Below the pieces are notes generated by a model, which did not search any database, was not told the DNA's origin, and saw nothing but the letters and a program-made list of their open reading frames with translations. The position numbers were made by a program, and so were the translations under genes. A stretch of 64,000 bases of DNA. Origin: Promethearchaeota archaeon. Its GTDB lineage: Archaea > Asgardarchaeota > Lokiarchaeia > Sigyniarchaeales > SOKP01. The DNA is taken from assembly GCA_008080735.1 (NCBI GenBank), contig SHMW01000010.1:1-64000 (forward strand). The letters run 5' to 3'. How positions within the stretch are numbered: position 1 is the stretch's first letter; each line of letters begins with the position of its first letter. This document shows, one piece after another, positions 6,180 through 36,357 of the stretch.

Positions 6180-7052
6180 TTGAAAAAGGATAAAATGTCA
6201 AAACCTGCATCGTTAAAAGTTGGACCATTTACAACAAATGTTCTCGTTAAGAAGAGATACTTGCTGTTTTATTTATTTCTTTTTTGGGTTGCTCTTTTTA
6301 CTATTCAATTTGAATTTTGGATTTATTACCATTATTTGAGTACGGAAATAATTTTATTTTACGTATTGCTGCCATTTTTGCTTATTTTTTTGTATATTTC
6401 GAGTGTATTTGTATCGCTTCTATTTGCGAAATTTTTGCTTTTTTGTGTTAACTTGATTCATAAACCACGCGAAGGAGTTTTTCTAAGAGATAAAAATGAT
6501 ATTGATTATCGCTATTGGAGCATACGCAATACGATAAAAAAATGGCCCGTATGGCTTTCCCATAAATTCCCCTTCCCGTTTTTGGATAATCTTTGTTTCA
6601 AAATGTTCGGGGTAAAAACAAGATTTAAAAATTCACTCTTTGAGGGGTGGGTGGATACGGAATTTATCGAATTCGGGGAAAATGTCACTGTGGGAGAGGG
6701 AAGTATAATTCAATCCGCATTAATCGCCGGTAATTTATTTATCATTCGAAAAACAGAAATAGGTAATAATGTAGAGATTGGGAGCCATGCGATACTTATG
6801 CCAGGAACCAAAATAGGAGATAATTGTATTGTCGCTGCAAGTTCCACTACTACCGTTGGTCAAGAATTAGAATCGGGTTGGATATATTTAGGTGTTCCAG
6901 CGACCAAATTTAAGAAAAATAGGTTTTTTGATGACAATCTAGAAGACTTGATTGGTGACTCGGAAGATATCGAAAATTTACGAGAAAAATATGATTTGGT
7001 ATACGTAAAAAGGAAAGATAAAGAAAAAATTCAAAAAAACTCTCCTGAGTAA
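6180..7052 (+). CDS. 2-TM + left-handed beta-helix protein; subunit C' of trio 2 (paralog of 2054..2941)
   Basis: HKFPFPFLDNLCFKMFGVKT and NSLFEGWVDTEFIEFGENV identical to subunit C. Confidence 0.8.
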   Translation: MKKDKMSKPASLKVGPFTTNVLVKKRYLLFYLFLFWVALFTIQFEFWIYYHYLSTEIILFYVLLPFLLIFLYISSVFVSLLFAKFLLFCVNLIHKPREGVFLRDKNDIDYRYWSIRNTIKKWPVWLSHKFPFPFLDNLCFKMFGVKTRFKNSLFEGWVDTEFIEFGENVTVGEGSIIQSALIAGNLFIIRKTEIGNNVEIGSHAILMPGTKIGDNCIVAASSTTTVGQELESGWIYLGVPATKFKKNRFFDDNLEDLIGDSEDIENLREKYDLVYVKRKDKEKIQKNSPE

Positions 7053-7062
7053 TCCTTGGTAT

Positions 7063-7499
7063 TCATTCTCTTATTTTTCTTAATGGACCATGAGTATCCC
7101 CCCTTATTATTTTGAGATCCTTTTCGAGATACTCTTTCAGGACTATACGTGTTATTGAGATTTTGTTTCTGTTTTTTAGGAAAAGTCTTGGGTTTGGACA
7201 ATCCTTATCAAGTACATATTGGTTAATTTCTATATCATATACTAATGGATAACAATGGCAACCTTGAGGGCGAAACTCATAAATTTTACATCTCACTGTG
7301 TTTTTATCAAAAAAATAGCAGGCTCTATTAATATTTTTTAGTTAATATTTTCCTATAGATAATTTCGTAGAAAATTCGATTTGATCGATCTGATTAGGAG
7401 TGTATTGAATATGACATAAAGTTCTTTTTCTGAAAAGACCATCCCCGTATTTAGACAACAACGACCACATTTTCTGCATTCTTCCAGATTGCTAAACAT
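7063..7499 (-). pseudogene. YkgJ-family (CxxCxxCC) cysteine-cluster protein, frameshifted
   Basis: N-part CRKCGRCC ends at TAG 7353; C-part ACYFFD..RCKIYEFRPQGCHCYP continues in another frame. Confidence 0.7.
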
Positions 7500-32231: not shown

Positions 32232-32390
32232 TCATAAACTCTCATATAATTCTGATGGTTTCCCACCGCACCCAAAGGTAAAAGACAAAAATTTTCTCTT
32301 TTTTTCACACTGGGGGCAGTAATAATTTCCCGATTCCTCTTTATCATCAAATGTAAATCCACATTCTTCGCAGATCACATAGCTTTTCAT
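32232..32390 (-). CDS. Small zinc-ribbon protein (52 aa), not in ORF track
   Basis: MKSYVICEECGFTFDDKEESGNYYCPQCEKK... Confidence 0.7.
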   Translation of the reverse strand: MKSYVICEECGFTFDDKEESGNYYCPQCEKKRKFLSFTFGCGGKPSELYESL

Positions 32391-32547: not shown

Positions 32548-32679
32548 TTAGGATTCTGATTCTTTTTCAGACTCCATCTTAAAGAATTCGGTGTATTTCC
32601 CACAATTAGCGCAGTAATACTTTCCTGGTTCATCTTCATCATCGATCGCGGTTCCGCATGATCTACAAATAACAGTCAT
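32548..32679 (-). CDS. Small zinc-ribbon protein (43 aa), paralog of 32232..32390, not in ORF track
   Basis: MTVICRSCGTAIDDEDEPGKYYCANCGKYTEFF... Confidence 0.7.
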   Translation of the reverse strand: MTVICRSCGTAIDDEDEPGKYYCANCGKYTEFFKMESEKESES

Positions 32680-33376: not shown

Positions 33377-33501
33377 TTTTTCATGATTATAAAACTATAA
33401 AATATTATTTAAGTAAAAAATGTATGATTTTGATAATAAATTTTTTCTCAACATTAATCATCGAACTATTAAGAGAGGATATGAAATAAAAAATGAAAGG
33501 G

Positions 33502-33571
33502 TTCCCATAACCCGCGCGAGGCAGTCATCAAATGTCTCATTTTTTTACATTTGACTCATCCAAAATGGGAA
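33502..33571 (-). promoter_or_regulatory. Eukaryote-like SECIS element in 3' UTR of selenoprotein 33575..34066
   Basis: UUCCCAU..AUGAG-UCAAAUGU-AAAAAAAUGAG-ACAUUUGA-UGAC..AUGGGAA: AUGA/GA quartet, 8-bp helix, A-rich loop, outer stem. Confidence 0.85.
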
Positions 33572-33574
33572 ATT

Positions 33575-34066
33575 TTAACAATATTGTTTAATTGCGTTGA
33601 GAATAGTCTCGATATCTGGTCTGTCCGTCTTAGTTTCAGCAATATATTTCCACATAATTTTTCCCGAGTTGTTAATTAAAAATTTAGACGGTATAGCTTG
33701 CTTAGATTTAATATTTGTTTCTGCTATATTTTCATATATCTCAATATCGAATTTTTCTGCAATTTCTGCGTTCTTATCTGAGATTTGTGAAAAATGTAGG
33801 TTGTTCTGCTCTTGATATTCCCGCATATGGTTTTCACTGTCCGATGATATTGAAATAAGTTTAACATTGTATTTTCGGATTTTTTCTAGGTTCTTATTTA
33901 AGAGAATAGAATGCTGTTTTCAATGACCTCACCAAGTCCCTCGGAAGAAATCGATAAGTAATCAACTATAATTATCTATTATCTCTGATAAATCAATTAT
34001 ATTTCCGAGAATGTCTGTAATCTTAAAGTATGGTGCGTTTTTTCCAACCATAAGTCCTTCATTCAT
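33575..34066 (-). CDS. Peroxiredoxin-like (AhpC/TSA) selenoprotein, UxxU motif, with a third in-frame TGA at codon 35
   Basis: MNEGLMVGKNAPYFKITD..NYS*LLIDFFRGTW-U46-GH-U49-KQH..LISISSD..AIPSKFLI..DRP; TGA at 33964, 33931, 33922; SECIS follows the TAA stop. Confidence 0.8.
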
Positions 34067-34282
34067 AATTTAGGCACTGTGATTATATTATTGAAGTATA
34101 GGTGTTTAAACAATCATCTTAAATGTATTATAAATAATAAATTATGACCAATATCTAAAAACAAATTTATAATGTTTTTTTATTGTATTTTGAATTGTAC
34201 ATTTTTTTCAGCTTTTCTCCCCAAAAGTATGATCATGCCGAATTTTTAAAAGCTTAAAAAAATAAGAGAAAAGAGTCTAAAT

Positions 34283-34351
34283 ACCAGAACCTGGACAAAA
34301 GGTCGTCAACAAATGCCTCATTTTTTCTGCATCTGTATCATTCTCTCTGGT
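34283..34351 (-). promoter_or_regulatory. Eukaryote-like SECIS element in 3' UTR of selenoprotein 34353..34868
   Basis: ACCAGA..AUGAU-ACAGAUGC-AGAAAAAAUGAG-GCAUUUGU-UGAC..UCUGGU. Confidence 0.85.
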
Positions 34352-34352
34352 T

Positions 34353-34868
34353 TTATAATTTTTTATCAATTTGCTCTGTTAGCAACTTGATTGAGGGCCT
34401 ATCTTCCCTTGTACCAATATATCTCCATGCAATTTTCATTTCCTTTCCAATTAGAAAGGTGGAGGGAATCGCTAATTTAGTCTTAAGATAGATTATATCT
34501 ATGGCGCTTCCAAAGGTATACACATCAAATTTCTTCGCAATCCTCGCTCCTCTGTCAGAAACTAAAGGAAATGTATATCCAAACTTACCGGATAATTCTT
34601 TTAAATGGTTTTTACTATCACTGGCAATTGCTATAAAGAACACCTTTCGTTTTTGAAATTCAGTTATATTTTTATTAATTCTCTCTAAATGTTCTTTGCA
34701 TGGAACTCAAAATGCGCCTCTAAAGAAATCTAATAGGATACCCCCAGAATCCTTCAAAACTTTTGTAAAATCTAAAATATTTTCGTTGATATCTACCAGC
34801 TGGTCAATAGGGATTTGAGATCCCACTTTTAATCCTTTATCAGAATCTTTATGCTCAATATCATTCAT
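34353..34868 (-). CDS. Peroxiredoxin-like (AhpC/TSA) selenoprotein, UxxC motif
   Basis: MNDIEHKDSDKGLKVGSQIP..GGILLDFFRGAF-U54-VPCKEH..IAIASD..FPLVSD..AIPSTFLI..DRP; single TGA at 34709-34707; SECIS follows. Confidence 0.9.
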
Positions 34869-35313
34869 ACAAAAAGAGATCATGTGGAATGATTTATTTA
34901 TTCCTTTTTTAAAAAATAACTTAATTATATTGACAGTGATCAGGAAGATAATTCTTATATATTGATGAGAAACCCTTGCAAGGTGGTCAACATAAATCTA
35001 TAATTTGTATTTATGTCTCATTCCGTTAAAATGCACAGTATATAGTTTTTATCATTTGAAGCTAAAGACCATAAAATATTGGATTGATTTTCACAAAGGG
35101 CAATAATGATAACCGTTGGTCTTCTTATCCAAATGTAATATTTTTCCGCATTTTTGACAAATTATCATATATTCTCTAAGAGTGTAAGCTTTTATTCTAA
35201 ATTAAAAATAAGTTCTATATTTTAAAATATCGATAATTTTATTATCCAAAATAAATAAATGTTGATTAATCCAAATTTTTTTCGAAAATATAACTAGAAT
35301 CTTCTTGATCAAA

Positions 35314-36357
35314 ATGGAATTTGTCCGATATAATGAAGAGAAATATACAGTTGAAAAAGGATTCTTAGATTTAGGTCTGTTAGGTATAAAAAACTTACGA
35401 GAAGTCAAAGGACTAAACAAATTAAAAGATATTTACCACTTGGAATTGAGCTCTAATGAAATTTCTTGTATTGATGGTTTAGAGGAACTCACCTCATTAG
35501 AAGTTTTAAACTTAGGGAGCAATTCGATCCTAGAAATATCAGGATTAGAGAGTTTAGAAAATTTGGAAGTATTGCATCTAATTAGTAATCAGATCGCAGA
35601 AATTAAAGGATTAGAAAATCTAAGAAATCTAAAAGAACTCTATTTGCGAGGAAATCAAATTAAGAAAATAATGGGATTAGAAAGTCTAAATAAATTGGAA
35701 AAATTAGACCTTTCTTGGAATCTTATCAAATCGATAGAAGGATTAGAAAATTTACAGAATTTACAAGTCCTCTGGATAGCAGGAAATATAGTCACTCAAA
35801 TTTCTGGATTAGAACATTTGAGTTCTTTGAAAATCTTAAATTTAGCGGGAAATCAAATACAAAAAATAACGAGTTTGGATAATCTGGAAGAAATAGAAGA
35901 GCTTTATCTAAATAACAATCGGATAAAAAAAATTGAAGGTATGGGGACTCTGAAAAACCTTGAATCACTATGGCTAAATGGAAATAAAATAAGCAAGATT
36001 GAAGGATTGGATAATCTTTCAAATCTAAAACTGTTAAATCTTAAAGAAAACAACTTACCAAGAATTACTGGGTTATTAAAACAAAAAAATTTGAAAGAAC
36101 TTTATTTATCTGGAAATGAGATAGGACATATTTCCGGACTTGAAACTTTAACTAATTTAGAAACGCTCGATCTAAACGATAACAATATAAAGAAAATTAA
36201 TGGCTTAGAAGCTCTAATGAATTTAAATTCCTTATGGATTAAAGGGAACCAACTACCTGAAGATGTATTAGAAAAATTAGGGGGCATAGATTCGTCTGGA
36301 TTTGCGAATGATCCTATTAAATTTGTAGAATATTGTCTAATCAATATTTCCCAATAA
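35314..36357 (+). CDS. SDS22-type leucine-rich repeat protein
   Basis: About 12 22-aa repeats LxxLxLxxNxIxxIxGLExLxx; ATG 35314 (track start TTG 35305). Confidence 0.9.
   Translation: MEFVRYNEEKYTVEKGFLDLGLLGIKNLREVKGLNKLKDIYHLELSSNEISCIDGLEELTSLEVLNLGSNSILEISGLESLENLEVLHLISNQIAEIKGLENLRNLKELYLRGNQIKKIMGLESLNKLEKLDLSWNLIKSIEGLENLQNLQVLWIAGNIVTQISGLEHLSSLKILNLAGNQIQKITSLDNLEEIEELYLNNNRIKKIEGMGTLKNLESLWLNGNKISKIEGLDNLSNLKLLNLKENNLPRITGLLKQKNLKELYLSGNEIGHISGLETLTNLETLDLNDNNIKKINGLEALMNLNSLWIKGNQLPEDVLEKLGGIDSSGFANDPIKFVEYCLINISQ

Follow-up and report, generated by a model that had tools for sequence, protein, structure and literature searches.

The window analysed here is a stretch of 64,000 nucleotides from the genome of a Promethearchaeota archaeon (Lokiarchaeia; assembly GCA_008080735.1, contig SHMW01000010.1, positions 1 to 64,000), and two tandem genes on its minus strand, designated A and B, are best explained as two separately signalled selenoprotein genes of the peroxiredoxin-like (PrxL) family, with a probability of about 0.88. 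Each gene contains in-frame TGA codons at which insertion of selenocysteine (Sec, U) is predicted, and each is followed, just past its TAA stop codon, by its own selenocysteine insertion sequence (SECIS) element in the 3' untranslated region (3'UTR). Gene A is already published (Huang 2024, PMC11227280), and gene B, which was not found there, adds a member to a family that is already known. The pair adds little beyond published work, the only unusual feature being a third UGA in gene B.

Gene A was found to start at ATG 34868, with an alternative ATG five codons upstream at 34883, and to end at TAA 34353-34355. A single in-frame TGA (34707-34709) falls within the motif FFRGAF-U-VP-C and gives the redox box U-V-P-C. 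When the TGA was read through, the product matched the Pfam families AhpC-TSA (PF00578; E 5e-19, 68.8 bits compared to a cut-off of 26) and Redoxin (PF08534; E 4e-15, 56.5 bits). Gene B starts at ATG 34066 and ends at TAA 33575-33577, and its two redox-box TGAs (33929-33931 and 33920-33922) give W-U-GH-U. Read through in the same way, it matched PF00578 with an E of 8e-23 and 81.1 bits (cut-off 26) and PF08534 with 58.6 bits. The two genes are 39% identical. Outside the redox box gene B contains a TGA at codon 35 and a Cys as its last residue, and the 163-codon reading therefore requires three read-throughs, not two. Gene A, read from Met-6, contains no Cys or Sec beyond the redox box.

Homologues of PrxL were found in 92 of the 154 genomes of the order, and nearly all of the full-length matches contained one or two TGA codons. 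Alignment of the redox box in 34 homologous genes from 29 related genomes showed TGA at position 1 in every case and either Cys or TGA at position 2. The gene A protein, taken from the first ATG, is identical letter for letter to the entry Lokiarchaeia_GCA_008080735_U_2 in the supplement of Huang 2024 (PMC11227280); a search of the 87 supplement files of that study with three substrings of gene B gave no match.

An earlier, sequence-only reading of this DNA had proposed tandem Prx-like selenoprotein genes at this place, and both were indeed found on the minus strand with AhpC-TSA/Redoxin Pfam matches; the complete proteins of 171 and 163 codons that it described were reproduced by translation with TGA read through. 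It had placed the TGAs at the CxxC position, which holds for gene A (U-VP-C) and for the pair in gene B (U-GH-U) but not for the third TGA of gene B, which it had overlooked and which lies off the CxxC. Its statement that standard annotation misses these genes is correct in that open reading frame (ORF) finding yields only pieces of 58+96 and 83 residues; gene A, however, is already known to specialists, its protein being printed in the Huang 2024 supplement. Its remark that the principle was already known also stands: neither the UxxC and UxxU types of PrxL nor their SECIS are new in kind (Mariotti 2016, PMC4989117).

SECIS elements and selenocysteine machinery

The two SECIS elements share the same order: AUGA, one unpaired base, an 8-bp helix, a loop, the second arm of the helix, one base, and GAC. 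In the gene A and gene B elements, respectively, the AUGA is located at 34338-34341 and 33556-33559 (11 nt and 15 nt past the TAA), the helix arms at 34329-34336/34309-34316 and 33547-33554/33528-33535, and the GA at 34306-34307 and 33525-33526. The A-rich loop is 12 nt long in the gene A element (AGAAAAAAUGAG) and 11 nt long in the gene B element (AAAAAAAUGAG), and both loops end in AAAAAAUGAG. The helices of the two elements differ by two pairs changed on both sides and one changed on one side; in addition to the eight Watson-Crick pairs, stem position 9 is G-U in the gene B element and U-U in the gene A element. A side hairpin and a lower, closing helix were observed in both elements, followed by a T-run. 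The lower helix of the gene B element ends at 33502, the first coordinate given in the sequence-only reading.

A covariance model (R1, Infernal) was built from 33 PrxL 3'UTRs of 30 loci in related genomes, aligned with MAFFT. In the window, R1 found the elements of genes B and A with E values of 3e-15 (79.7 bits) and 7e-11 (60.3 bits), respectively. The AUGA and GAC cores were invariant in the 33 aligned elements, and the position adjoining the core was mostly unpaired, as expected beside a kink-turn. All eight Watson-Crick helix pairs showed changes on both sides. The covariation score was 0.46, a value reached by none of 500 shuffles, and it fell to 0.17 or less when the partner was slid by 1-3 columns. 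In a model-based alignment of 40 elements, which is biased towards the model, compensatory changes were observed in 17 of 18 pairs, including those of the side hairpin (consensus aCCuUGCAAgGGu) and of the closing helix (UCCCA/UGGGA). These findings bear out what had been claimed from the letters of the window, namely an AUGA...GA hairpin with an 8-bp helix and an A-rich loop right after each TAA, evident from sequence reading and R1 scores alike, in which pairing is preserved despite different helix sequences, as seen from the compensatory changes across 33-40 related 3'UTRs. The checks proposed at that time, an Infernal model, an alignment of homologues and a search for the Sec machinery, all came out in its favour: R1 finds both elements, position 1 of the redox box is TGA in all 34 homologous genes with Cys or TGA at position 2, and tRNA-Sec, a SelB-type EFsec, SelD, a PSTK-like gene and SepSecS are all present in the genome.

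The side hairpin aCCuUGCAAgGGu was found in the SECIS of all PrxL and zinc-ribbon genes, between GAC and the 3' strand of the closing helix (33502-33524 and 34268-34305 in the window). Side hairpin and closing helix are predicted to form a three-way junction, and no description of such a junction with a side hairpin was found in the available portions of Mariotti 2016 or Huang 2024. In four related PrxL loci (L053, L054, L056 and L062), translation would end at the UGA contained in the AUGA core of the SECIS. In many other PrxL loci, only 2 nt separate the TAA from AUGA and the last codons contain the closing helix, so that in both groups the SECIS overlaps the end of the reading frame. A weak R1 match at 7014-7080 of the window (minus strand; 25.5 bits, E 0.007) follows an ORF whose TGA is probably an ordinary stop, and is likely a false positive.

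The genome is a metagenome-assembled genome (MAG) of 4.1 Mb in 140 contigs, with 33.6% G+C, 93% completeness and 7% contamination. It appears, from gene and RNA matches, to hold the full Sec-decoding set of the archaeal/eukaryotic route (tRNA-Sec, PSTK, SepSecS, EFsec and SelD). The tRNA-Sec gene sits between SepSecS and EFsec and contains two introns, one of approximately 22 nt that interrupts the anticodon loop and one of 29 nt that interrupts the T loop. After splicing, a 9-bp acceptor and a 4-bp T stem (9/4 fold), a 7-bp D stem and a long variable arm were observed, together with the anticodon TCA and a G discriminator, and a tRNA-Sec was present in all six genomes of the same genus. The tRNA-Sec gene of the genome studied here was detected neither by ARAGORN run on the whole genome, nor with Rfam RF01852 (E<=10), two custom scripts or a GC-island scan; the two introns explain why ARAGORN and RF01852 missed it. 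R1 also found SECIS downstream of four other genes with in-frame TGA, three of them VhuD-like and one VhuU-like, and the VhuD and VhuU entries for GCA_008080735 in the Huang 2024 supplement are equal to those found here on two other contigs. Of 2418 long ORFs, 421 (17%) end in TGA, which indicates that TGA is not reassigned genome-wide. One further R1 match (contig C102, 10367-10453, plus strand; 52.7 bits) is an orphan with no known selenoprotein gene upstream. A frame ending approximately 10 nt before it resembles a small membrane protein and contains an in-frame TGA (...NGEPSG-U-ACITF...).

Table 1. Position and supporting evidence of genes A and B, the SECIS elements, the neighbouring zinc-ribbon gene and the selenocysteine machinery
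Feature	Position	Strand	Evidence
SECIS of gene B	33485..33573	-	model R1, 79.7 bits; sequence reading
Gene B, Prx-like selenoprotein (predicted), 163 codons, redox box U-G-H-U	33575..34066	-	translation, Pfam, tree
Third in-frame TGA of gene B, codon 35 (NYS-U-LLIDFF)	33962..33964	-	translation, homologue alignment
SECIS of gene A (lokiSECIS / Asgard type I)	34264..34355	-	model R1, 60.3 bits; sequence reading
Gene A, Prx-like selenoprotein (predicted), 171 codons	34353..34868	-	translation, Pfam, homologue alignment
Third SECIS, of zinc-ribbon gene, just upstream of gene A	34947..35032	-	model R1, 48.2 bits
Zinc-ribbon gene, 39 codons, C-x-x-C ... C-x-x-U	35049..35168	-	ORF reading
tRNA-Sec	contig C15:60230-60370	-	blastn with a relative's tRNA-Sec
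SepSecS			389 bits
EFsec/SelB-type factor	~5 kb from SepSecS		244 bits
PSTK-like gene			E 2e-52
SelD			one in-frame TGA

In the proposed mechanism, the kink-turn SECIS placed right after the TAA of each mRNA, with its AUGA/GA core, 8-bp helix, A-rich loop of 11-12 nt, side hairpin and closing helix, would let EFsec bring Sec-tRNA-Sec to the in-frame UGA codons, and the T-run past each SECIS would probably end the transcript. A putative factor would read the kink-turn; Asgard archaea are not known to possess an SBP2 (PMC4989117, PMC9723677). The redox boxes suggest that the two proteins may act through a selenenylsulfide in A and a diselenide in B.

The third TGA of gene B and alternative readings

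Several points weigh against taking A and B as two working selenoprotein genes. Sec insertion at their UGA codons is deduced from sequence. The folding energy of the two elements was no better than that of shuffled sequences (z +0.76 and +0.78), and no Rfam SECIS match was found at the gathering score in the whole window or at E<=10 in 33400-35100. The PSTK-like gene falls under the NCBIfam curated cut-off. As for gene B, codon 35 stands where the family has an almost invariant Gly, at a long distance along the sequence from the redox box, and no homologue has Cys at this position, a pattern expected of a fresh nonsense mutation. Moreover, gene B was not found in the published catalogue that includes gene A (Huang 2024). 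The minimum-free-energy fold of single sequences likewise failed to recover the elements; given the z values, support for the SECIS comes from covariation rather than from energy.

At the codon-35 column, Gly was found in 29 and Ala in two of the 31 other aligned homologues, the two Ala showing that a side chain is tolerated there. The TGA is one base from GGA and is best read as the product of a recent single-base mutation in a Gly codon. In the search of the 154 genomes of the order, gene B was the sole PrxL match with three TGA codons. No in-frame start codon occurs between codon 35 and the redox box, so that a working gene B protein would require read-through. Gene B retains all 21 invariant residues of the family and contains no frameshift, and its SECIS is the highest-scoring in the genome (79.7 bits with R1). 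A Logan contig of run SRR10018917 was 100% identical over 1077 bases and carried the same codon-35 TGA, with reads possibly shared with the genome. An exact-pattern scan of metagenome contigs for the codon-35 region gave no match, and a search of metagenome contigs for close relatives of gene B able to date the change found none.

For a SECIS in the 3'UTR, every in-frame UGA upstream of it is a target. We lean slightly towards read-through of the codon-35 UGA as Sec, since the SECIS would already serve two UGA codons in the gene B mRNA and the Ala residues show that a side chain fits; of the whole explanation, this part is the least secure. More tentatively, and at somewhat less than even odds, the gene B protein might carry three Sec residues, one of them at a formerly Gly, non-catalytic site, with the 3'UTR SECIS buffering new UGA mutations. 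If so, codon 35 would be a case, caught in the act, of Sec arising where Cys never stood, and the neighbouring zinc-ribbon gene, with its additional UGA in place of a zinc-ligand Cys, would be a second case of such buffering in the same genome.

The strongest alternative, which we consider unlikely though far from negligible, is that gene B has been freshly inactivated, the codon-35 TGA stopping translation or being poorly read, and that only gene A works. Replacement of the nearly invariant Gly at a position where no homologue has Cys, the singular count of three TGA codons among the 154 genomes, the lack of an in-frame start before the redox box and the listing in Huang 2024 of gene A, but as far as found not of gene B, apparently for this very assembly, all fit with inactivation. 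However, no other defect was found in gene B, since the reading frame is unshifted, the 21 invariant residues are kept and the SECIS is intact at 79.7 bits. An additional TGA specific to this lineage occurs in the neighbouring zinc-ribbon gene as well, in that case at a Cys position. TGA is the only nonsense codon that can be reached from GGA in one step, and the codon itself therefore cannot separate tolerance from decay; it is also the only stop that a SECIS-bearing mRNA can decode. An error of sequencing or assembly in place of GGA is improbable: the TGA differs by a single base, in a MAG with 93% completeness and 7% contamination, from relatives that all have Gly or Ala, but it is also present in the separate Logan contig (SRR10018917), which argues against an assembler artefact, though not against a systematic read error.

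Two further explanations concern the locus as a whole. In the first, the TGAs would be ordinary stop codons, the short ORFs would be pieces of genes and the hairpins would serve only to terminate transcription; standard gene calling does give such fragments, and T-runs follow the hairpins. This is very improbable, as in 92 genomes the frames are open and conserved both before and after the TGA, terminators are not marked by an invariant AUGA/GA core or an A-rich loop, the neighbouring zinc-ribbon family has the element in 52 of 52 TGA-ended and none of five Cys-ended genes, and the Sec machinery is complete. In the second, TGA would encode one of the standard amino acids throughout the genome, as it does in genetic codes 4 and 25. 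Several genes with in-frame TGA might suggest this, but it can practically be dismissed, since TGA ends 17% of the long ORFs, in-frame TGA occurs only where known selenoprotein families have a Cys-type position, a CxxC box with Trp or Gly would be chemically senseless, and a dedicated tRNA with a TCA anticodon and a Sec-type fold is present.

The neighbouring zinc-ribbon gene and the third SECIS

A small zinc-ribbon gene lies upstream of gene A on the same strand (Table 1). Its TGAs are located at 35091-35093 (C-x-x-U) and 35052-35054 (end K-U), the latter followed directly by TAA (35049-35051), and the AUGA of its SECIS (35018-35021) lies 27 nt past this TAA. Homologues of 36-37 codons were found to be confined to the taxonomic family of the window, with approximately 57 core matches in 400 genomes of the phylum. 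The terminal TGA was directly followed by TAA or TAG in all 51 readable cases of the 52 TGA-ended zinc-ribbon genes, compared to a genome background of 7.6% of TGA stops followed by an in-frame stop. An R1 match was present 25-130 nt downstream in all 52. In contrast, the five homologues that end in Cys and a stop had no SECIS of their own (0/5). In 24 zinc-ribbon SECIS, none of which had been used to build R1, 94% of positions were paired and all eight pairs showed compensatory changes. The proteins predicted in databases end one residue short, at ...FK.

These findings make the zinc-ribbon family look like a selenoprotein family with Sec as the last residue. Such a Sec-terminal zinc-ribbon family was not found in Mariotti 2016, Huang 2024, Sun 2021 or a 2026 review, and the gene is more novel than the A/B pair. 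AlphaFold gave a three-stranded, zinc-ribbon-like model of the protein (pLDDT 85), and Foldseek searches of the model against the PDB returned only weak generic zinc-ribbon matches. The extra TGA at the fourth zinc-ligand Cys was observed in the window copy only, and in no other family member. With those of genes A and B, this SECIS makes three consecutive elements at the locus that share a common side hairpin and can serve as natural variants.

Two other roles were considered for this gene and its element. The view of the zinc-ribbon protein as an obligate partner of PrxL was weakened, as the genes are adjacent in some genera only and an AlaX-like gene follows elsewhere. The third SECIS as an element of the gene A 5' untranslated region was rejected, as it trails TGA-ended zinc-ribbon genes even without PrxL next to them and is absent where a Cys-ended zinc-ribbon gene precedes PrxL.

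Two small zinc-ribbon ORFs containing only Cys (32548-32679 and 32268-32378, minus strand) are related to the Sec-containing one (34% identity; profile matches) and are local paralogues with a different C-terminus. A leucine-rich-repeat gene (35305-36357, plus strand) is divergent from the zinc-ribbon gene, and this pairing is kept in most related loci, with or without PrxL next to it.

PrxL relatives and known systems

Among known organisms, the Asgard archaea stand closest to eukaryotes, and the eukaryotic SECIS is proposed to derive from theirs; the requirements of such an element therefore become clearer with every gene that is well documented. Gene B exposes a gap in catalogues that rely on the pairing of Cys with Sec, as these lose genes with an unexpected extra UGA. 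Codon 35 also offers a simple way to learn whether the SECIS in the 3'UTR of an Asgard gene can recode every UGA that precedes it, as happens in eukaryotes.

The named relatives of PrxL come from MAGs of Promethearchaeota (Lokiarchaeota) and a few records labelled as other Asgard phyla. In a tree of 32 PrxL proteins, gene A was placed on a very long branch and gene B clustered with UxxU genes of two genomes of the same genus (support 97/85). The UxxC+UxxU tandems of another genus arose by a duplication separate from that of the A/B pair, and the UxxU state required at least three changes on the tree. The solved structures nearest to the PrxL profile were BCP/PrxQ (2cx3), a Sulfolobus Prx-like protein (2ywn) and ResA (4nmu), with E values of 9e-19 to 9e-18 and matches that span nearly the whole PrxL length.

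PrxL proteins have the AhpC/TSA form of the thioredoxin fold. True peroxiredoxins carry the motif T/S-x-x-C, in which the second position is the peroxidatic Cys. Genes A and B show R-G-x-[WF]-U-x-x-[CU] instead, and the canonical P-x-x-x-T/S-x-x-C of peroxiredoxins was not found in them. The predicted Sec of PrxL thus stands at the T/S position, akin to the CxxC of ResA or thioredoxin, and whereas BCP/PrxQ and ResA/TlpA (2cx3, 2ywn, 4nmu) use Cys, PrxL would use Sec.

In Lokiarchaeum, PrxL.1 with two Sec and PrxL.2 with one Sec have been described, with no Cys outside the box, the latter being more a description than a strict criterion, and no PrxL member has been characterised experimentally (Mariotti 2016, PMC4989117). 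Of the Asgard genomes that use Sec, 43% were reported to encode Prx-like selenoproteins, most of these with eSECIS-like structures of type I (Huang 2024, PMC11227280). With PrxL.1, PrxL.2 and this Asgard 'Prx-like protein' family, genes A and B share the fold, the U-x-x-C and U-x-x-U boxes and the 3'UTR SECIS. In contrast to the PrxL described so far, gene B has a third TGA off the redox box and a C-terminal Cys.

The lokiSECIS has a 9-bp stem, an 11-nt loop, an AUGA/GA core and an A-run (PMC4989117). The elements of genes A and B share with it the AUGA...GA core, a stem of nine positions, a loop that starts with an A-run and the place just past the stop codon; the loop of the gene B element has the same 11 nt, whereas that of gene A has 12 nt. 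The euryarchaeal, Methanococcus-type SECIS consists of a GC-rich 10-bp stem, a GAA/A asymmetric bulge and a short GC stem (PMC4989117); in contrast, the helices of A and B, as read from their sequences, are AU-rich, 8 bp long and without a GAA/A bulge. With the eukaryotic SECIS (Rfam RF00031 and related families), the Asgard elements share the AUGA/GA kink-turn core, unpaired adenines in the apical loop, the location in the 3'UTR and predicted action at a distance on several UGA codons; the Asgard element, however, has a shorter upper helix and lies directly against the stop codon or overlaps with it.

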